From a virus: a DNA stretch of 57,022 bases. Below the pieces are notes generated by a model that saw only the letters and a list, made by a program, of their open reading frames with translations, did not search any database and was not told the DNA's origin. Made by a program: the position numbers and the translations under genes. The first letter of the stretch is position 1; every line of letters starts with the position of its first letter. The stretch lies in the UHGV virus genome UHGV-1526745; one strand, written 5' to 3'. Below, piece after piece: positions 3,056 through 50,500 of the stretch.

Positions 3056-3673
3056 TCAGGTGCGCTTATCGTCAACCGTTGTGCGGTATGACAGGAGCAC
3101 GTACTGATCCATCAGATCCGTCAGTGCTGCGCTCTGCTTCTGACGGTTGATGATCCATTCCTCCAGCTCTTTTTCTGATTTCCGTTTCAGATTCTCCGTC
3201 CAGTCGTCAAGGCAGTTTCCGGTCATTAAATCAAGCCAGCAAAGCCAGACCAGTTTGAGGCGCAACTCCGTGCCACCAAACTGACGGAAGAGGCTGATCA
3301 GTTTATTTGCCAGAGAACGCTGCCTCAGACGTTCACATTCAGACAGGAGAATGCCTTCCAGCATCGGATGATGAACCAGCAGATGTTCACTGGTGCATAA
3401 ATTCACTATCAGATCATCATCCAGGGGCGGTGTGGCCCGTTTGTCAGGGCCATAAATCAGCCGGTGCAGGCTCTGGGGTACGATGGCAATCTCCGGTTTT
3501 TCACCATTGAATGACACCCAACCGGGCGTCAGATTATGGAAGTAGTAGATATTCGGATGACACACGCCCCAGAATACGGCGTGCCGGGTGAAGCCGGTCA
3601 GCCATTTCTGGTAGCTTTCGTGGAGCCATTCGTAGCGGGTCTGATACTGTTGTTTCATTTTCATATTCCTCAC
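3056..3673 (-). CDS. inovirus Gp2-family / YfjJ-like protein
   Basis: 205-aa track ORF; MKQQYQTRYEWLHESYQKW N-terminus typical of YfjJ/YagK-type island proteins (recalled). Confidence 0.5.
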   Translation of the reverse strand: MRNMKMKQQYQTRYEWLHESYQKWLTGFTRHAVFWGVCHPNIYYFHNLTPGWVSFNGEKPEIAIVPQSLHRLIYGPDKRATPPLDDDLIVNLCTSEHLLVHHPMLEGILLSECERLRQRSLANKLISLFRQFGGTELRLKLVWLCWLDLMTGNCLDDWTENLKRKSEKELEEWIINRQKQSAALTDLMDQYVLLSYRTTVDDKRT

Positions 3674-3752
3674 GGGGATATAACAGGCAGCAGAATGCCG
3701 CCGGCAGGCCGGAGATTACGTCTGCTGCGGGTGAACGGATAACGGTCAGAAA

Positions 3753-3884
3753 TTACGGACGGGACTGTGCAATACGCGCCTGCAGCCAGGCTTCCACTTC
3801 ACTTTTCAGCCAGCGGGAGCTGCGCCCCATTTTGATGGGGGCAGGAAAGCCCCCATCTTTGATGAGTTTGTAAAACCACTTATC
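3753..3884 (-). pseudogene. alpA: alpA 3' fragment (AlpA-family HTH regulator, C-terminal half)
   Basis: Minus-strand translation ...KDKWFYKLIKDGGFPAPIKMGRSSRWLKSEVEAWLQARIAQSRP* with in-frame stop just upstream and no start codon; complements the N-terminal fragment at 56942..57022. Confidence 0.65.
3876..3884. repeat. attachment-site core copy CCACTTATC (left junction)
   Basis: Same 9-mer with one mismatch (CCGCTTATC) at 56939..56947; both sit exactly where alpA-like coding sequence breaks. Confidence 0.5.
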
Positions 3885-14390: not shown

Positions 14391-14423
14391 AAAACCCCCA
14401 TAAGTCACATTTTGTATATATCT

Positions 14424-38873: not shown

Positions 38874-39033
38874 AATGCTCTCTCCTTTTTCAGGTGATTT
38901 TTACGCATTTCAGCGTTACCGGATTTTTAAAGAGCATTTTGTTTGTTTGAAGTATACAAAACGGATACATGCGAACAAACAATAAAGCGCCATTATGTGA
39001 TCCGCATCACACAATGACGCCATTTTGTAAACA

Positions 39034-44493: not shown

Positions 44494-44772
44494 TTAATCG
44501 TTAATAACCTTGCCCATACGCCCGCGATATTTGCGCATTCGTGGATCAACATATTCAGGCCACTGCATATCATCAGTTTTCTGTAGCGGGTAAGAACTCG
44601 CTCGCCAGTTGTCAAACCAGATTTGCTTCGCGTACAGGTCACTAAATCTTTTCGCCATTCGATCCGCTGCCGTGCCGCATAAAAAAAGCCCGCGATCGAT
44701 TTGATCGCGGGCTTCTTTTAATACTTGCTCTTTTGTTCGTGGTTGCGGTGGCGGTTTTAGACAATCACTCAT
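44494..44772 (-). CDS. hypothetical protein
   Basis: Internal start (MSDCLKPPPQ...) of track ORF 44494..44904. Confidence 0.4.
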   Translation of the reverse strand: MSDCLKPPPQPRTKEQVLKEARDQIDRGLFLCGTAADRMAKRFSDLYAKQIWFDNWRASSYPLQKTDDMQWPEYVDPRMRKYRGRMGKVIND

Positions 44773-44788
44773 CGCTAACACATTGATT

Positions 44789-45208
44789 CTAAAAAGGAAT
44801 ATCGTCGTCGAAGTCCATCGGAGGCGGATTATTCCCGTTATTATTCTGCTGCTGCGGCGGCGCTTTCTGCTGCTGTCCTTGCTGCTGGCCTTGTTGGTTA
44901 ACATTCATGAATTCAAATTCATTAACCGCCACTTCTACCGCAGTCCCCTTCGTGCCGTCGTTCCGGTCATATTGCCGAACATCCAGGCGACCGCTTACCA
45001 CTATTTTTCCACCCTTGCGGATATGTGGCGCTAATTTTTCCGCACGCTCACCAAATACCAGGCAAGTGATCCACATTGTCCGCTTGTTATCACCGTAGCC
45101 ATTCGTTACAGCTAACGGAAAACTACCAATCGCTTTACCGTTTTGCGTGTAGCGAACTTCCATGTCGTTTCCGATATTCCCGCCCAGCGTAATTGAATTC
45201 AAACTCAT
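44789..45208 (-). CDS. ssb: single-stranded DNA-binding protein
   Basis: OB-fold N-terminus, Gln/Gly-rich linker, acidic tail DFDDDIPF. Confidence 0.9.
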   Translation of the reverse strand: MSLNSITLGGNIGNDMEVRYTQNGKAIGSFPLAVTNGYGDNKRTMWITCLVFGERAEKLAPHIRKGGKIVVSGRLDVRQYDRNDGTKGTAVEVAVNEFEFMNVNQQGQQQGQQQKAPPQQQNNNGNNPPPMDFDDDIPF

Positions 45209-45852
45209 TAACCCATCTCCCCGTTAAGCTCTGCGACCCGGATGTCATAAACATCTTTTGCCTTGATTCGATGTTCCGATCCTTCCGGTAGTAATTTCCA
45301 GCATTTGCCAAATATTTCACGCAGCTTGTTAGCGTCCTGCGCTTTCGCTGCTGCATCACAGAAACGTGCTAATACTTCATCAGGATTTGGCGGCGCTTTC
45401 TTCTGCTGCGGTTGTTGTTTTGGTGGGTTTTTCTGTTGTCGCGGCTGCTGGCCTGTCTGCTTCGCGTAAGCATCAGTATCAGGATCGCGAGCATCATCTA
45501 TACAGAATAAACCGTTCAAAGCATATTTACGCGCGTAACTTGATGTTGCTCCTGTTAGCTGGCTGGCGTCCATACCCTTCTTGTTTTCTTCCTCCCTGGC
45601 ATAAGCAGTTACCGCTATTACGTCTTCACCGTCGCTTAGCGTCGCCGTTGCTTTCACATAATAGCGATTGCCGATCAGGACAATTTCATCACTAACAGTC
45701 AGCGTGATATTTTGAAGCAGTGGTTTAACCGCCTCTAAAATATCCTCCGCCGACCTGTAATTATATCCACCAAAATTATTACGCTGATTTTTCGGCGCGT
45801 TCAGCGTTTGCTGAATCGTCCATAGCTTTTTATGTAACTCTGTTTTCACCAT
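45208..45852 (-). CDS. Erf-family single-strand annealing recombinase
   Basis: 214-aa ORF directly upstream of ssb; resembles P22 Erf-type proteins (recalled). Confidence 0.7.
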   Translation of the reverse strand: MVKTELHKKLWTIQQTLNAPKNQRNNFGGYNYRSAEDILEAVKPLLQNITLTVSDEIVLIGNRYYVKATATLSDGEDVIAVTAYAREEENKKGMDASQLTGATSSYARKYALNGLFCIDDARDPDTDAYAKQTGQQPRQQKNPPKQQPQQKKAPPNPDEVLARFCDAAAKAQDANKLREIFGKCWKLLPEGSEHRIKAKDVYDIRVAELNGEMG

Positions 45853-45998
45853 TTAATCTCCCGTGCTGTTAACACTATGTATAAGGCTTTATTCGCGGCG
45901 CTCCACATTTCGGCATCGTGAAGCATTTCCGCTACTGCCAGTTTGAATTGAAGCGCCTGAATAACCATAATGTCATCTCCGGATGTTTACATTTTGTA

Positions 45999-46289
45999 TT
46001 AATGGTAGCGGACTTTATCCAGGGGTTTTTCCCCTAAATGGCGTGGTTGCGTTGCGTGGTAGTAGCTGCCGCTTTCATTTTCCGTATACCATTTTACTGA
46101 TCCTTTGCGACGTTCTTTAATGCTATTTGGTTTGCATCTTTCCTCGTTTGCAAATCGAATAGCTTTATCCACATTGTCTGTTTTATTGATTGCAGGTGAT
46201 GATTTTCTTTCGTTTTCTCTTTTTATCCTTCTGCGTTCCCTGGCATTCATTTTGCTATCACATTTACCATATATAATTGTAACGCTCAT
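45999..46289 (-). CDS. putative N-like antitermination protein (arginine-rich motif)
   Basis: First gene of leftward operon; MNARERRRIKRENERK resembles lambdoid N ARM; start may be internal (46250). Confidence 0.35.
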   Translation of the reverse strand: MSVTIIYGKCDSKMNARERRRIKRENERKSSPAINKTDNVDKAIRFANEERCKPNSIKERRKGSVKWYTENESGSYYHATQPRHLGEKPLDKVRYH

Positions 46290-46750
46290 AATCTGATCTC
46301 CGTATATCCTTGATGATACTTAATAAAAAATCATCTTCGTTAATTGCCGCACTTCCAGCGGCTGACCAGATTGTTAATGAGCGGCTTAACATCTTTCAAC
46401 TAATCCCGCAATCATCGCCGTTCCCGGCGTGACCTTGCTCACTCCAAGCAAGCTGACTCGTCGCCTTGCGTGCGGTTTCGTGGGGGATGTAACGCTTTAA
46501 ACACCCCATGCGCCTTGTTATCAGTGCCGCTTTCGGTCCCCCATCGGGGAGTTACTCCACGGTTGACAAGGTGTTAAGCCTGATTTTTAAAGTGCCAGGA
46601 AGTTGCTTTTGTTACCTGCGCCCTTCCTTTGACTCGCAATATACGCCCCGTAAAACATCGAGTCAATCCATTTTGTATACTTTTTTAAAATATTTTATAT
46701 GCCATTGATATTTAAATAATAAATAACGTTTTCTGTTTACGTTTTGGTGT

Positions 46751-46784
46751 TTTCCAGGCAAAGAAAAGCCGCCATTCGGCGGCT
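46751..46784 (-). terminator. rho-independent terminator after repressor gene
   Basis: Hairpin AGCCGCC-ATTC-GGCGGCT 6 nt after repressor stop, followed on minus strand by TTTCTTT. Confidence 0.5.
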
Positions 46785-46789
46785 AATGT

Positions 46790-47437
46790 TTATGGCAGGT
46801 TTACGATCTTCGCATCAACCACCACGCCTATAATTTTTGATTCTGGATTCATAGGGATTGGCGGATACAGCGGATTGAGCGAACGTAAAAGCCTTTGACC
46901 TCCATCAATAATCAACTGTTTAAACGTCGGTATCTGCCCTTCCTCAAGCTGGGCTATAACCAGTTTGCCGTCAATAGCTGGCGCGTGCGGGTCCACAAGT
47001 ATCATCGTCCCCGCCGGGATGCTCAACCCCTGCGGCGCGTTCATTGATTCACCTTTGGCAACCAGCCAGTAACTGTCATCTGAACAAATAACGCTAGTCG
47101 TAACGTGTCGTAATGCTGAACGCCTTGCGTCATCCATATTGTTTACTGTGTCCTTCCAGTCAATAACCGGGTAACTACCTAAATCACGCGGCGGCACGGC
47201 CTGAAGTGTATTAGAAACAGAATCATCAATGACCATGCCATCATGTGTAACAGTAAACTGCCGACGACCAAGCTCGCGCATAATCCGCGCAATATCTTCA
47301 AGATTTGGCTCTCGGCGACCGTTCAGCCAGTGTGACAGGCCGCCTTTAGTTATCCCCATACGATCCGCGAGCGAATCCTGGCTCATGCCCTGCGCCCGCA
47401 TGAGCTGCTTTGCTAAGTCATACCATTTTGTTTTCAT
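46790..47437 (-). CDS. CI-like repressor (HTH_XRE + S24 LexA-like peptidase)
   Basis: N-terminal HTH (QDSLADRMGITKGGLSHWLNGRREP), C-terminal KGESM / ILVDP autocleavage-type region. Confidence 0.85.
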   Translation of the reverse strand: MKTKWYDLAKQLMRAQGMSQDSLADRMGITKGGLSHWLNGRREPNLEDIARIMRELGRRQFTVTHDGMVIDDSVSNTLQAVPPRDLGSYPVIDWKDTVNNMDDARRSALRHVTTSVICSDDSYWLVAKGESMNAPQGLSIPAGTMILVDPHAPAIDGKLVIAQLEEGQIPTFKQLIIDGGQRLLRSLNPLYPPIPMNPESKIIGVVVDAKIVNLP

Positions 47438-47439
47438 GT

Positions 47440-47742
47440 CGCTACCCTATAACCTCAAAAAGTTTGATGCAAGTCACAAAACGTGTATTTTAAGCCTTGA
47501 TCTTAAAATTCCATTTTGTAAACTTGCAGACAAGGTAAGGCCATACTTGCAAAGACGCAAGGAAAAAGATAACGGAAGGCACAAAAAGGCACTTACCTTA
47601 TGCTCTTTAAAAATCCGGTGTCGCTGCGAAGCGAAAAACAAATATCACGCAACGGCGGGATCTGTTGAGCGGTCAGTCACTGCTATCTAATGCTAATGGG
47701 ATGCCCGCCCGCGCGTTCACTCTAACCATAGGAGAAAATGCG
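47440..47742. promoter_or_regulatory. right operator/promoter region
   Basis: Divergent intergenic region; inverted repeats CTTGCAGACAAG and CTTGCAAAGACGCAAG (47523..47562) plus CCATTTTGTA motif. Confidence 0.4.
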
Positions 47743-48000
47743 ATGAGTATAAACATGATTAGTAAAGCATGGAACGTAAAACTTAATAGCCCGATTCAAA
47801 AACTTGTCTTAATGGCTCTGGCTGAAAAGGCAGATAACAAAGGACGGGTACATGATGCATCACGCAAAGAAGTAGCCGCAATGTGTGAACTTCCTGTTCA
47901 TACGGTACATGATGCCTTCGCCGCGTTAATGGATAAAGGATTTGTTTGTCGTCTTGATGCATTCAGTGATGTCTATGTAGTGATGTTGCCGGAGGGATGA
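47743..48000 (+). CDS. winged-HTH DNA-binding protein (Cro/CII-position regulator or replication-associated)
   Basis: ATG after AGGAGAAA RBS inside track ORF 47665..48000; first rightward gene. Confidence 0.5.
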   Translation: MSINMISKAWNVKLNSPIQKLVLMALAEKADNKGRVHDASRKEVAAMCELPVHTVHDAFAALMDKGFVCRLDAFSDVYVVMLPEG

Positions 48001-48003
48001 TCT

Positions 48004-49056
48004 ATGAAGTGGTTTAAGCATGACAGCGATGCGAACCGCGATGAAAAACTTCAAAACGTTTTGTTAGATTATGGCCTGGAAGGGTACGGGCTTTATTGGT
48101 ATTGCCTCGAACTAATAACTTATGACGTAGATCAGCACAATCTGACTTTTGACCTACGACATGACGCGAGAATCATTGCGCGAAACGTCGGATCGACTGA
48201 AAAACGTATAGAAGAAATGATGAAATACTTCATCGAAATTGGTTTGTTTGAATGTTCTCAAGGCCACATAACTTGTTTAAAGTTATTGAAAAGGCTTGAC
48301 CAATCAATGACTTCTAAAAGCGCGTACAGGGCCGCCATAAACACAGCTAAGGAGCAATTAAAATTAGAAAAGTTAATCAATCCAACACAAAAAGGTCATG
48401 ATAGGGTCATGACCGGGTCAGGAAAGGGTCATGAATTAGAATTAGAAGTAGAAGAAGAAAGAGAAAAAGATATATACACTTCGTGTATTGTCGAAAATGA
48501 ACAAAAAATGGTCAATCATGATGGCGTAAACGAAGCGGCGTTGCGTTGCCTGGCCTTCTACAACGACAAGGCAGGATGCAAATGTCGTGATGCGAAGCCA
48601 TTCATCGAACTACTGACAGAAACAAAAACACGTAAAGCGTATACGGAGGATGAGATCACATTAGTGATTGAGTGGGCTTTAACGCAATGGCGTAGCCGTG
48701 GTGGAACACCTAAGCCTATCAATATTTGCCGGGTAACTAAATTTGATGGGTATCTGACTGATGCTGAACAATGGCGCAAACTGTCAGCCACTGCAAACGC
48801 TGCCGACGTGGTGGAAGCATTTAACAGCACGTTTGACGGCCTGTTACCACCTGTCGAACTGGATCGGGATCTTGAACGCAAGATCTATGCGTTCACTGAC
48901 TACCTGAAAGACAAAAGCATTAACGGCTTTGTCGCCTACTTCGAAACATTCAAAAACACGGCTTCAGATTTTTACTTCGGCAATGGCTTCACAGCGACAC
49001 TTGATTTCCTGCTTAAACCAAAAACGCTACGCGACACACGCGCAGGCGCTCTTTGA
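48004..49056 (+). CDS. replication protein, DUF4373 (Lin1244-like) N-terminal domain
   Basis: MKWFKHDSDANRDEKL... start characteristic of DUF4373 (recalled). Confidence 0.55.
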   Translation: MKWFKHDSDANRDEKLQNVLLDYGLEGYGLYWYCLELITYDVDQHNLTFDLRHDARIIARNVGSTEKRIEEMMKYFIEIGLFECSQGHITCLKLLKRLDQSMTSKSAYRAAINTAKEQLKLEKLINPTQKGHDRVMTGSGKGHELELEVEEEREKDIYTSCIVENEQKMVNHDGVNEAALRCLAFYNDKAGCKCRDAKPFIELLTETKTRKAYTEDEITLVIEWALTQWRSRGGTPKPINICRVTKFDGYLTDAEQWRKLSATANAADVVEAFNSTFDGLLPPVELDRDLERKIYAFTDYLKDKSINGFVAYFETFKNTASDFYFGNGFTATLDFLLKPKTLRDTRAGAL

Positions 49057-49444
49057 CCAACCACGATTCGCAAAAATCCAAAATTACCCACAAAACAACC
49101 TCACCAGCGAGCTAAAACACGCATGGTGCTACGATTGCATATCTTTAGCTATTTAGCTCGTTATAGAGCGTTTTAGAGAGGATTTTAAAATGGACGGTAA
49201 ACACGTTTTCGCCCTGGCCTTTGCCATCGCTGCTGCAATCGCTGTTAACGTCGCTTTGTTCGGCGGTTTGTTCCTTCTTATCAATCCATAACCTTCATAC
49301 CAGCCTGTAAATCAAAAATTAGCCACCTGAGAGCGCCTCTGACGCAATAAGACACTGCAACCTGTGCAAACGGGTTACGCGGTGGGATTTTTGCGTTGTA
49401 GCACGTCTGAGGCGTTATATATAAAATTAAGAAAAGAGGTACAT

Positions 49445-50500
49445 ATGATTGCCACTTATCATGTGAAACTAAATTGTAAGGACACGCAATTACTATCTGT
49501 TAATAATCTTGTTTCTGAACTTGAAATCGATAGGCTTAAATCATTTGTTAAATACTCTGATCTTTACGGATTTGAGGAATACAAGGATTTTATTATTGAT
49601 GGTGATGATGTGTATATCACACCTATAACGTTTATTAGATTCGTTACACCTGGTAAATATAGACATTATGAATATAATGAAAATTGGGTTAAGCCAGTTA
49701 TTGAATCTTGTGGATTAGTTGATTTACAAGATGTGTTTAATAAATATTCAAATAATACCAGAAAAGATAGTCCTTATGCTTATAATTATGTTTTATGGTG
49801 TAACAACTATGTTGAAACTAGTGATACTCCCGGGCGATGCTCTGTGTATGTGTCAAAGGAAGATGCTGAAAAGTATAAAAAATGGTTGTTCGTTACTCGC
49901 GGAGTATCAATAGAAAAACTATGGGTAAGGTTGTTTCATTCAAGCGATATTGCAGATCCAGATACGTTTTTAAATGAACATCTTAATAATGATGAGTTTA
50001 CCATTGATTTAAATATTGAATATTTTACAGTTAAAACAAATTATGGATATGAAAGATATATTAGCGATAAGATAGCGGAAAAGTATCATACATGGGGTCA
50101 AAATAAAGGTCTTAGTAATAATTTTGAATGCGGTAATTATAACGACATAGAAAACTTTATTGAATTAAAAAGCGACAAGAATGTAATTGAGGAAATAAAA
50201 AGGGAATGTGACGAGAAATTATCAGAAATGAGTTATAATTGTAAAAATATGATTAGGAAGCGTTATGAACATGCTGGATTAACTATGTACGAAAAACTAA
50301 AAGGAGTTAAATTAATAAGGCAATATCCTGTTAATGTTGCTGGCAACAAGTATTTTATTGATGGCTACGATCTTGTGAATAATATTGCTGTAGAAATTGA
50401 TGAATCACATCACAAACGGCAAGCAAAAAGCGATGCGATAAGACAAAAACGCATTGAGGATTATTTGGGGTGCAAGTTTTTTCGTTGTGCTATATCCTGA
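49445..50500 (+). CDS. AT-rich moron protein with C-terminal DUF559/Vsr-like nuclease-type domain
   Basis: ATG after AAGAGG RBS; C-terminus YFIDGYDLVNNIAVEIDESHH...DAIRQKRIEDYLGCKFFRC fits DUF559-type pattern; strongly AT-rich versus neighbours. Confidence 0.55.
   Translation: MIATYHVKLNCKDTQLLSVNNLVSELEIDRLKSFVKYSDLYGFEEYKDFIIDGDDVYITPITFIRFVTPGKYRHYEYNENWVKPVIESCGLVDLQDVFNKYSNNTRKDSPYAYNYVLWCNNYVETSDTPGRCSVYVSKEDAEKYKKWLFVTRGVSIEKLWVRLFHSSDIADPDTFLNEHLNNDEFTIDLNIEYFTVKTNYGYERYISDKIAEKYHTWGQNKGLSNNFECGNYNDIENFIELKSDKNVIEEIKRECDEKLSEMSYNCKNMIRKRYEHAGLTMYEKLKGVKLIRQYPVNVAGNKYFIDGYDLVNNIAVEIDESHHKRQAKSDAIRQKRIEDYLGCKFFRCAIS

Follow-up and report, generated by a model that had tools for sequence, protein, structure and literature searches.

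The stretch of DNA analysed here, referred to below as the window, comprises 57,022 nucleotides. Positions 45999 to 47742 carry, on the minus strand, a gene for an arginine-rich N-like protein (gp17 homolog) preceded by its own leader and early promoter, and a gene for a CI-like repressor (rep) followed by its own terminator. A rightward early promoter and a nut site are found beyond rep, on the opposite strand, and further candidate control elements lie along the gp17 arm (Table 1).

Table 1. Genes and predicted control elements of the immunity and early-control region, in window coordinates
Feature	Position	Strand	Remarks
nutR2	38903..38936	-	boxA TGCTCTTTAAAAA 38936-38924; boxB ACGC-UGAAAU-GCGU 38916-38903
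t4-like terminator hairpin	38986..39021	-	terminator scan
t2-like intrinsic terminator downstream of ssb	44686..44714	-	13-bp stem then U7
gp17 homolog, N-like antiterminator	45999..46289	-	96 aa; arginine-rich motif at residues 15-29
nutR1	46346..46383	-	boxA CGCTCATTAACAA 46383-46371; boxB GCCGC-UGGAAGU-GCGGC 46362-46346
Predicted optional structured RNA element, gp17 leader	46383..46581	-	closing stem 46568-46581 with 46383-46395
Inverted repeat CTTGCT-N7-AGCAAG, hairpin	46434..46452	-	arms 46434-46439 / 46447-46452
Pseudo-nut, boxA-like GGCACTTTAAAAA without boxB hairpin	46584..46596	-	5' edge of optional element
Predicted gp17-operon early promoter TTGACT-17-TATATT	46638..46666	-	best regional promoter match
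S1, candidate operator GTATACAAAATGG	46668..46680	-	abuts -35 of gp17 promoter
Variant motif copy CACCAAAACGTAAAC	46735..46749	-	upstream of gp17 early promoter
Intrinsic terminator of rep transcript	46767..46784	-	AGCCGCC-GAAT-GGCGGCT then TTTTCTTT
Rep, CI-like repressor, Rep021/gp15 homolog	46790..47437	-	HTH_3 + Peptidase_S24, 215 aa
S3, candidate operator TGCAAGTCACAAAACGTG	47468..47485	+	upstream of PR, where the rep promoter must lie
Predicted rightward early promoter TTGATC-16-TAAACT, replication arm	47497..47524	+	conserved hexamers
S2, candidate operator TGCAAGTTTACAAAATGG	47511..47528	-	overlaps rightward promoter spacer and -10
nutL	47601..47634	+	boxA TGCTCTTTAAAAA 47601-47613; boxB UCGCU-GCGA-AGCGA 47621-47634

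At the DNA level, this region is 90-93% identical to phages mEp021 (92%), mEp010, mEp515, mEp044, mEp013 and mEp554 and 99.9% identical to a prophage of E. coli strain M15, and it is found in 35 of 5426 complete E. coli genomes. Its gene order agrees with the mEp021 record. The region shares with the mEpimmI group both its genome organisation and its immunity, Rep being 95% identical to Rep021; within the group, Rep is about 96% identical, which serves as a group criterion. In a study of the mEp021 early control region, Rep021 blocked infection by all six mEpimmI phages, and Rep021 immunity, Nus-dependent antitermination by Gp17 and three nut sites (nutL, nutR1 and nutR2), at which Gp17 exerts early antitermination, were experimentally shown for mEp021; antitermination and Nus dependence are reported for both mEp021 Gp17 and the mEp phage collection (Negrete-Mendez et al. 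2025, PMC11893012). Published work on this phage group already covers repressor, N-like protein and all three nut sites and, since homologs of Rep and Gp17 have been characterised, the main reading of a first-pass annotation of this DNA, made from the letters alone, is right but known. Nut and operator sequences are absent from the supplements of that study, to which the present sequence comparison would add the predicted promoters, the candidate operators and a putative structured leader element.

The CI-like nature of Rep, recognised in the first-pass annotation, is borne out by matches to HTH_3 (1.5e-12) and Peptidase_S24 (5.8e-19) and by similarity to lambda cI (3BDN, E = 1.4e-20, alignment spanning residues 15-208). 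The catalytic Ser and Lys of the S24 domain, S131 and K173, are invariant in the Rep family alignment. The linker (residues ~60-125) contains no AG or CG dipeptide, i.e. the self-cleavage site is absent; likewise, Rep021 is without an Ala-Gly site and its lysogens are not UV-inducible (Negrete-Mendez et al. 2025). The terminator, which had been placed 6 nt after the repressor gene, is found as a hairpin 5-6 nt past the TAA stop, with a 7-bp stem including 6 GC pairs, a GAAT loop and a TTTTCTTT tail. It is kept in all relatives, only with variation in the loop, corresponds to TERM_1 in the record of mEp021 and probably represents t1 as published.

The gp17 homolog had been singled out for its N-type arginine-rich stretch and indeed carries the motif NARERRRIKRENERK, of which R17, R19, R20, R21 and R24 are invariant among 10 relatives. 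The protein is 93% identical to mEp021 Gp17, the primary paper on which is reportedly that of Valencia-Toxqui et al. 2023 (Arch Virol 168:92), and matches PHROG 271, 'anti-termination protein N-like' (E = 1.3e-13). Against Pfam PF25694 (N_peptide), it scores 15.9 bits, under the cut-off of 27.9, and BLASTP gave no similarity to lambda N. A search for distant relatives in GTDB genomes found none, and searches of IMG/VR and protein databases returned only relatives at least 60% identical. A start at the internal Met14, which would make the arginine-rich motif N-terminal, was rejected because most relatives have Leu or Ile at this position. The homology to Gp17, combined with the activity published for the latter (Negrete-Mendez et al. 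2025), supports the earlier proposal of N-type antitermination serving a long operon.

According to the first-pass annotation, a single leader of about 460 bp follows the repressor gene. This interval of about 460-500 bp contains its own conserved promoter, the score of which (10/12 in a consensus scan) is the best in the region; both hexamers are conserved across relatives and the spacer is variable. Transcription of gp17 would start near 46631, and the conserved sigma-70 promoter thus implies a transcribed leader of about 340 nt. In the rightward promoter, which is below the threshold of the consensus scan, the -35 (TTGAYC) and the -10 are likewise conserved in relatives with a variable spacer, and a nearly identical promoter, TTGAAC-16-TAAACT, precedes cro in a sister phage (L096). 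Its start site probably lies near 47531. The 'lambda-like logic' read into the region holds for the CI-like repressor, the terminator and the N-like protein, but no cro ORF is found in the present region and the N-like gene sits on the arm toward Q and the late genes. Terminators that need overriding, t2-like and t4-like, lie downstream of gp17 on the minus strand. The t2-like terminator, identified by a terminator scan and a partial match to the Rfam Thr_leader family (32 bits versus a cut-off of 55, the only notable Rfam match), is a candidate target for Gp17 antitermination.

The three nut sites have a common boxA, a spacer of 7-9 nt and a common hairpin geometry; the boxB hairpin begins 7-9 nt past boxA in 15 of 15 variants examined, which have five stem sequences, and the boxB stems covary among relatives. 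A search of the leader for boxA and boxB, as suggested in the first-pass annotation, located the probable nutR1 at 46383-46346 on the minus strand, a placement that follows from conservation and geometry; its boxB stem takes the forms GCUAC/GUAGC, GCAC/GUGC and UCGC/GCGA in relatives. In short-form phages, nutR1 has a perfect TGCTCTTTAACAA. The boxA of nutL is an exact repeat of that of nutR2, and nutL is kept in all relatives, where only its loop changes; nutR2 lies just downstream of the t4-like hairpin. The pseudo-nut has two mismatches to the nutL/nutR2 boxA, is followed by no stable hairpin (-2.3 kcal/mol) and is absent from short-form leaders.

The optional element of the gp17 leader is present in 44 loci and absent from 14, mEp044 among the latter, and is 94-100% identical where present. 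RNAalifold predicts a multi-branch fold, with a folding z-score of -1.9; because the sequence is almost invariant, there is no covariation support beyond one hairpin. This hairpin corresponds to the CTTGC-N-GCAAG repeat reported in the first-pass annotation at 46434..46454; the repeat is present, although the coordinates were off by 1-2 nt. It is unremarkable by folding energy alone (z = -0.9), and its reality as an RNA stem follows from covariation: in one lineage (L003/L004/L060), three pairs are changed on both sides and one U-A has become U-G, G·U pairs being possible on the minus-strand RNA only. The inverted repeat is probably one hairpin within a larger leader RNA element. Comparison with Rfam, in which 44500-49500 was scanned by E-value and 46300-46650 at a laxer setting, assigned the element to no family, a result that bears on HK022 put only if Rfam includes a put model. 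The element was also considered as a mobile or shared block, but a distant blastn search against phages and E. coli genomes, complemented by an exact-core scan of IMG/VR, showed it only inside the phage group, once per genome.

An RNA function of this block has to be weighed against a small protein gene, gp16 (46509-46396, minus strand), or a DNA-level site. Small ORFs are annotated there in mEp021 and mEp515, and the block is more conserved than neighbouring genes. This reading is nevertheless improbable, as the eight hairpin changes in the L003 lineage turn SQLAWSEQGHAG into SQITWIEWCHTG with every base pair kept, the remaining changes fall mostly in predicted loops and the block is dispensable in 14 loci; coding by gp16 was rejected because these radical amino-acid changes keep the base pairs. 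It is very improbable that Gp17 is a Nun-like exclusion or termination factor directed against other phages rather than the phage's own antiterminator. Its N/Nun position, its arginine-rich N-terminus and the lack of detectable similarity to lambda N would suit such a factor, but the phage's own early transcripts contain three cognate boxA-boxB sites and the 93%-identical Gp17 is reported to act in antitermination (Negrete-Mendez et al. 2025), both of which would argue against a Nun role.

An asymmetric 13-bp motif, copies of which occur across the genome, is the only conserved sequence common to both early promoter regions. In the form CATTTTGTA it occurs 13 times versus 0.93 expected, and in the form [CT]ACAAAA[CT]G[GT] (GTWTACAAAAYGG) 16 times versus 1.2 expected, with 15 of the 16 copies in intergenic DNA, which makes up 14% of the window. 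The copies are of mixed orientation and include many inverted pairs 26-71 bp apart; in mEp021, copies are present at homologous places. At the gp17 promoter, S1 is invariant in alignments of 12 loci and of 15 leader sequences, which include the most divergent leaders, the adjacent spacer being variable, and the same arrangement recurs in sister phage L096 and in a Citrobacter prophage (L098). S2 is a 94% repeat of S1, conserved in relatives with CCATTYTG variation only, and S3, inverted relative to S2 and 36 bp away, is conserved in 15 diverse relatives and has a counterpart in L096. The variant copy is nearly invariant in relatives, and the identical 15-mer is found upstream of the ant gene in L096. 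Moreover, the motif flanks rep in two further groups of phages whose Rep has almost the same recognition helix, namely L096/L097 (Rep 55% identical, recognition helix identical) and the Citrobacter prophage L098/L099 (Rep 50% identical).

Several other roles for the motif were tried. As a start-codon context, TACAAAATG has an ATG, but most copies open ORFs of 1-10 codons, and at 14408 a GTG start had been picked by a crude ORF caller. A general role as a sigma-70 -10 element was rejected, a suitably spaced -35 being present for no more than two or three copies. Comparison with the binding sites of OmpR, PhoP, LexA, IHF and TyrR gave partial resemblances only, and the motif string was matched in the literature by nothing but unrelated primer sequences. 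Asymmetry is unusual for the sites of a dimeric CI-like repressor, and S1 lies upstream of the -35, not over the core promoter; together with the mixed orientation of the copies, these features count against GTWTACAAAAYGG operators.

The first-pass annotation had instead proposed as repressor operators the CTTGC-N-GCAAG repeat in the leader and repeats of the same type in the divergent region. The repeats exist: four CTTGC/GCAAG pentamers cluster within the 305-bp divergent region, at 47469(-), 47523(+), 47546(+) and 47557(-), versus about 0.8 expected from the window-wide density (152 copies), they are conserved in relatives, and the palindrome CTTGC-N6-GCAAG at 47546-47561 would overlap a weak alternative promoter, TTGCAA-15-GATAAC. 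An operator role is nonetheless hardly likely. Two of the pentamers are the outer flanks of another conserved motif, while the other two belong to palindromes downstream of the likely start site, which differ in arm spacing (4 and 6 nt), cover about -8 to +31 relative to the conserved promoter and give leader hairpins on folding. These palindromes are confined to one side, none of the CTTGC type being conserved at the gp17 promoter in the leader alignments of relatives. The leader repeat, for its part, forms an RNA stem in which three pairs show double compensation, its G·U pairs being sensible only as RNA, and is located ~180-195 nt past the promoter; it is no essential operator, because it is among the sequences missing from the 14 short loci, including mEp044, which is still repressed by Rep021 (Negrete-Mendez et al. 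2025).

The GTWTACAAAAYGG motif is most likely a better operator candidate than the CTTGC palindromes. It might also be functional without being the operator of Rep, either as a site for another phage or host protein, e.g. gp14, encoded by the first gene in the rightward operon, or as a promoter-associated element. Asymmetry and mixed orientation are more in keeping with a protein that binds as a monomer or in tandem than with a CI dimer, and the motif has the same spacer/-10 position in two plausible promoters, TTGATC-16-TAAACT and TTGTTC-16-TATACT. We consider this somewhat unlikely, however, given that the motif accompanies the Rep family in three otherwise different phage backbones, where it is found on either side of rep, that no other conserved sequence is common to the two early promoter regions and that most copies are without a usable -35 at promoter distance (flanks read by eye).

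Judging from these sequence comparisons, positions 45999-47742 very probably govern immunity and early transcription in an E. coli prophage of the mEp021 type (mEpimmI), in which Rep would act via the candidate GTWTACAAAAYGG sites. Rep would silence the early promoters via S1, S2 and S3, about a dozen further copies being located in other intergenic regions; by homology, its own transcript stops at the hairpin behind the gene. Transcription of the gp17 leader would pass through the optional ~200-nt RNA (46581-46383) and then nutR1. Going by homology and the published activity of mEp021 Gp17, the arginine-rich motif of Gp17 binds boxB RNA and, with host Nus factors, enables RNA polymerase to pass terminators; polymerase modified at nutR1 would read through the t2-like terminator and then reach nutR2 on the same arm, toward Q and the late genes. 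The rightward promoter would serve nutL and then the replication genes, with no cro between. A joint proposal, which we put forward tentatively, is that Rep acts via all ~16 asymmetric sites and that the leader RNA, undescribed so far, tunes the expression or loading of Gp17. The GTWTACAAAAYGG network may span both early promoters, the region upstream of nutR2 and the moron and replication intergenic regions, and the same site family, with a copy that precedes an antirepressor gene, may be used by repressors of this kind in other phages of enterobacteria. Most group members may carry the nearly invariant ~200-nt RNA between early promoter and nutR1.

Exact nut, promoter and terminator coordinates are now available for a prophage of a group that is reportedly as common in the human gut as the lambdoid phages. 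The palindromic operators proposed earlier appear to be features of the RNA leaders, which would spare misdirected gel-shift work, and two testable leads emerge, i.e. the candidate operator network of a cro-less, non-UV-inducible switch and the optional structured leader RNA.

Compared with mEp021 early control, the same genes are found in the same order, with three nut sites at the described places, the present copy being a prophage variant close to that of strain M15. As in lambda, a CI-like S24 repressor gene that has a terminator of its own is combined with divergent early promoters, an arginine-rich protein is encoded first on one arm, and the boxB stem-loop behind boxA has a GNRA-like loop, Nus dependence being known from the literature. 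In contrast to lambda, Gp17 is without similarity to N (the N_peptide match being below threshold), the nut sites number three rather than two, the arm toward Q and the late genes carries the N-like gene, genes for cro, cII and rex are not seen, the Rep linker is without Ala-Gly and lysogens are reportedly not UV-inducible (Negrete-Mendez et al. 2025), and the candidate operators are asymmetric whereas those of lambda are 17-bp pseudo-palindromes. In mycobacteriophages L5 and Bxb1, repressor sites called stoperators, which are asymmetric and 13 bp long, occur in many copies throughout the genome. The present motif likewise has many short asymmetric copies, almost all intergenic and including those at the early promoters, but the 16 sites are of mixed orientation, with no bias relative to transcription and hence no stoperator-type single orientation, inverted pairs are common, the repressor is of the CI/LexA type and the sites are only candidates. 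The lambda N leader contains an RNase III-sensitive structure between nutL and N. Here, the structure is upstream of the nut site, optional within the immunity group and without an Rfam family; in both phages, a long structured leader would lie between the early promoter and the antiterminator gene.

The region is carried by 35 of 5426 complete E. coli genomes. Over 1.9 kb, it shows 90-93% identity to the Escherichia phages mEp021, mEp010, mEp515, mEp044, mEp013 and mEp554 and 99.9% identity to a prophage of E. coli strain M15. The CI-like repressor (Rep) is 95% identical to mEp021 gp15 (Rep021) and the arginine-rich protein (Gp17) is 93% identical to mEp021 gp17. In this mEpimmI group, plasmid-expressed Rep021 blocks all six phages, early antitermination is ascribed to the N-like Gp17 (citing Valencia-Toxqui et al. 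2023), the phages are Nus-dependent, lysogens are not UV-inducible, and Rep has no Ala-Gly cleavage site (PMC11893012). Three Gp17 nut sites were described: nutL precedes gp15, nutR1 precedes gp17 and nutR2 follows gp32 (PMC11893012). The repressor and antiterminator system is already known, as is the finding in the form given by the first-pass annotation, which our analysis confirms in part.

Rep contains HTH_3 (1.5e-12) and Peptidase_S24 (5.8e-19) domains, and lambda cI (3BDN) aligns to its residues 15-208 (E = 1.4e-20), in agreement with the CI-like assignment. The Gp17 protein carries NARERRRIKRENERK at residues 15-29 and matches PHROG 271, "anti-termination protein N-like" (1.3e-13). Pfam N_peptide scored only 15.9 bits against it, below the cut-off of 27.9, and BLASTP gave no similarity to lambda N. 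On the same strand, gp17 is followed by a kil-like 40-aa ORF, erf and ssb; the other side, on the plus strand, encodes a small winged-helix protein (47743-48000) and a replication protein of the Lin1244/DnaD type. The 40-aa ORF (45846-45968, -) directly follows gp17 and matches Lambda_Kil weakly (Pfam E = 2e-4, below cut-off; PHROG 2055 Kil, 1.4e-3); as it adjoins gp17, a kil-like gene would be under the early promoter of gp17. A sub-threshold Rfam Thr_leader match after ssb (44679-44783, -; 32 bits versus 55) corresponds to a strong intrinsic terminator, with a 13-bp stem followed by U7, and this terminator is likely the t2 target of Gp17.

Features of the immunity region and of the dispersed motif
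Feature	Position	Strand	Description
Rep ORF	46790-47437	-	215 aa; ORF call
gp17 ORF	45999-46289	-	96 aa, arginine-rich; ORF call
Rep terminator	46784-46767	-	Hairpin AGCCGCC-GAAT-GGCGGCT, then TTTTCTTT; 5-6 nt past the stop codon
gp17 promoter	46666-46638	-	TTGACT-17-TATATT
Rightward promoter	47497-47524	+	TTGAYC-16-TAAACT
nutR1	boxA 46383-46371; boxB 46362-46346	-	CGCTCATTAACAA; GCCGC-UGGAAGU-GCGGC; 8 nt between boxA and hairpin
nutL	boxA 47601-47613; boxB 47621-47634	+	TGCTCTTTAAAAA; UCGCU-GCGA-AGCGA; geometry of nutR1
nutR2	boxA 38936-38924; boxB 38916-38903	-	boxA identical to that of nutL; ACGC-UGAAAU-GCGU; geometry of nutR1
Leader block (~200 nt)	46581-46383	-	Closing stem (13-14 nt) 46568-46581 with 46383-46395
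Leader inverted repeat	46434-46452		CTTGCT-N7-AGCAAG
S1	46680-46668		GTATACAAAATGG
S2; S3	47511-47528; 47468-47485		Conserved element TGCAAGT(C/TT)ACAAAAYG(G/T), inverted copies
Palindromes	47523-47534; 47546-47561		CTTG-N4-CAAG; CTTGC-N6-GCAAG
Motif copies	6163, 6196, 14407, 14478, 17989, 18015, 38955, 39020, 42532, 42556, 45989, 46668, 47475, 47511, 50505, 51643		[CT]ACAAAA[CT]G[GT]

Alignment of 46 distinct versions of the repressor-gp17 interval (phages, E. coli prophages, IMG/VR contigs and assemblies) revealed that the gp17 promoter, the top promoter match in the region, is kept throughout, with a variable spacer. Because of this conservation, the interval is not a leader continuing from the repressor gene, as had been proposed; the repressor transcript would stop at its own terminator, the presence of which is borne out, and gp17 would be transcribed separately, from a promoter that gives it a leader of ~340 nt. 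The nut sites, missed in the first pass, were located at three boxA-boxB pairs, in support of N-type antitermination, and their positions appear to fit the published description. Among relatives, pairing of the boxB stems is kept while their sequence is altered (GCCGC/GCGGC, GCUAC/GUAGC, GCAC/GUGC, UCGC/GCGA, ACGC/GCGU), loops remain UGAAAU-like, and short-form phages carry a perfect rrn-type boxA, TGCTCTTTAACAA. A candidate promoter, TTGTTC-16-TATACT (38978-38951, -), lies between a t4-like hairpin (39021-38986) and the nutR2 boxA; a start at this site, if real, would explain the need for a third nut site.

The CTTGC/GCAAG inverted repeats had been put forward as operators. The leader copy lies ~180-195 nt 3' of the gp17 promoter, within a ~200-nt block that 44 loci carry and 14 lack, mEp044 being one of the latter. 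Phages mEp044, mEp013 and mEp554 give the same two-piece 84% match to the region, with the short form confirmed for mEp044, and Rep021 represses all three (PMC11893012). Since mEp044 is repressed despite its short form, the leader repeat cannot be an essential operator. In one lineage (L003, L004 and L060) the stem reads AUCACU...AGUGGU, with three pairs changed on both sides and one U-A pair turned into U-G; a further lineage shares U-G at this pair. On the plus strand, the G·U pairs would turn into A·C mismatches, so it is the minus-strand RNA, the gp17 leader, that forms the structure. The repeat is an RNA hairpin, and its assignment as an operator is wrong. Elsewhere the block retains 94-100% identity, also in loci whose flanking DNA is at 85% and Gp17 at 71%, and RNAalifold predicts a multi-branch domain, for the other helices of which covariation speaks neither for nor against. 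The 5' edge carries a boxA-like GGCACTTTAAAAA (46596-46584) without boxB hairpin, and the 3' edge coincides exactly with the true boxA. The block matched no Rfam family, nor was it found outside this phage group among E. coli genomes, phages and IMG/VR. The gp16 ORF annotated in the mEp021 block is rewritten by the compensatory changes and so probably does not encode a protein. In plus-strand orientation, the 5' edge including the pseudo-boxA (46574-46597) shares 75% identity with the sequence around the rightward promoter -35 (47490-47513), which hints that duplication or recombination inside the control region may have given rise to the block.

The four pentamers of the divergent region are real and conserved, but of two kinds, and it is unlikely that they serve as the palindromic operators proposed. 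Those at 47469 and 47523 belong to the longer element (S3 and S2), at its outer end in each copy; the remaining two belong to palindromes of unequal spacing, and both CTTGC-type palindromes, which fold as hairpins in the leader, lie just 3' of the -10. The S2/S3 core recurs as S1, which abuts the gp17 promoter -35 and does not vary in the aligned leaders, the most divergent ones included; it alone among conserved sequences is common to both promoter regions. In the window, CATTTTGTA occurs 13 times versus 0.93 expected, and the asymmetric [CT]ACAAAA[CT]G[GT] (core GTWTACAAAAYGG) 16 times versus 1.2. Fifteen of these 16 copies are intergenic (intergenic DNA being 14% of the window), mostly in pairs 24-71 bp apart, and mEp021 has copies at homologous places. 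Just upstream of nutR2, the t4-like hairpin and TTGTTC-16-TATACT are framed by one such pair, one copy falling inside the spacer of that candidate promoter. A CRP-like TTTGA-N6-TCACA (47463-47478) overlaps S3, its half-sites kept and its 6-nt spacer variable in relatives.

The main argument for the motif as candidate operator is that it accompanies rep in otherwise different phages. The sister phages L096 and L097 (in L096, Rep is 55% identical, with an identical recognition helix TKGGLSHWLNGRR) have three copies in the 124-bp cro-rep interval, one immediately next to the -35 of the promoter that follows rep, two upstream of an Ant antirepressor gene and one after the Gp17-like gene. A Citrobacter prophage (L098/L099), with a 50% identical Rep and an unrelated replication module, has one copy in the cro-rep interval and one immediately next to the -35 (TTGACG) that follows rep. 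Against this, the site is asymmetric and S1 is located 5' of the core promoter. On balance, we consider the chances somewhat better than even that this repressor family uses the dispersed motif as its operator. The literature searched, including the supplements of PMC11893012, gave no operator sequences for mEp021-type phages. A 15-mer upstream of the gp17 promoter, CACCAAAACGTAAAC (46735-46749), recurs unchanged at 2689-2703 of L096, upstream of the antirepressor gene, and looks like the main motif with other bases in place of the central A-tract.

As far as our literature search shows, the dispersed motif and the optional structured leader RNA are unpublished leads. The lambda-like logic claimed for the region holds for repressor, terminator and antiterminator, but the N-like gene lies on the Q/late arm and cro is missing. 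Between the rightward promoter, kept in 15 diverse relatives, and gp14, the first gene of the rightward operon, no cro-like ORF is present (47531-47742, +), the sole short ORF having lost its ATG in relatives. The ~100 untranslated nt from the nutL boxB to the gp14 ribosome-binding site (47635-47735, +) are near-invariant in 15 diverse relatives and fold as a hairpin closed by GGCGGG/CCCGCC; no terminator was detected in this stretch. In L096, by comparison, the same promoter, as TTGAAC-16-TAAACT, precedes a genuine 75-aa HTH cro (3649-3876).
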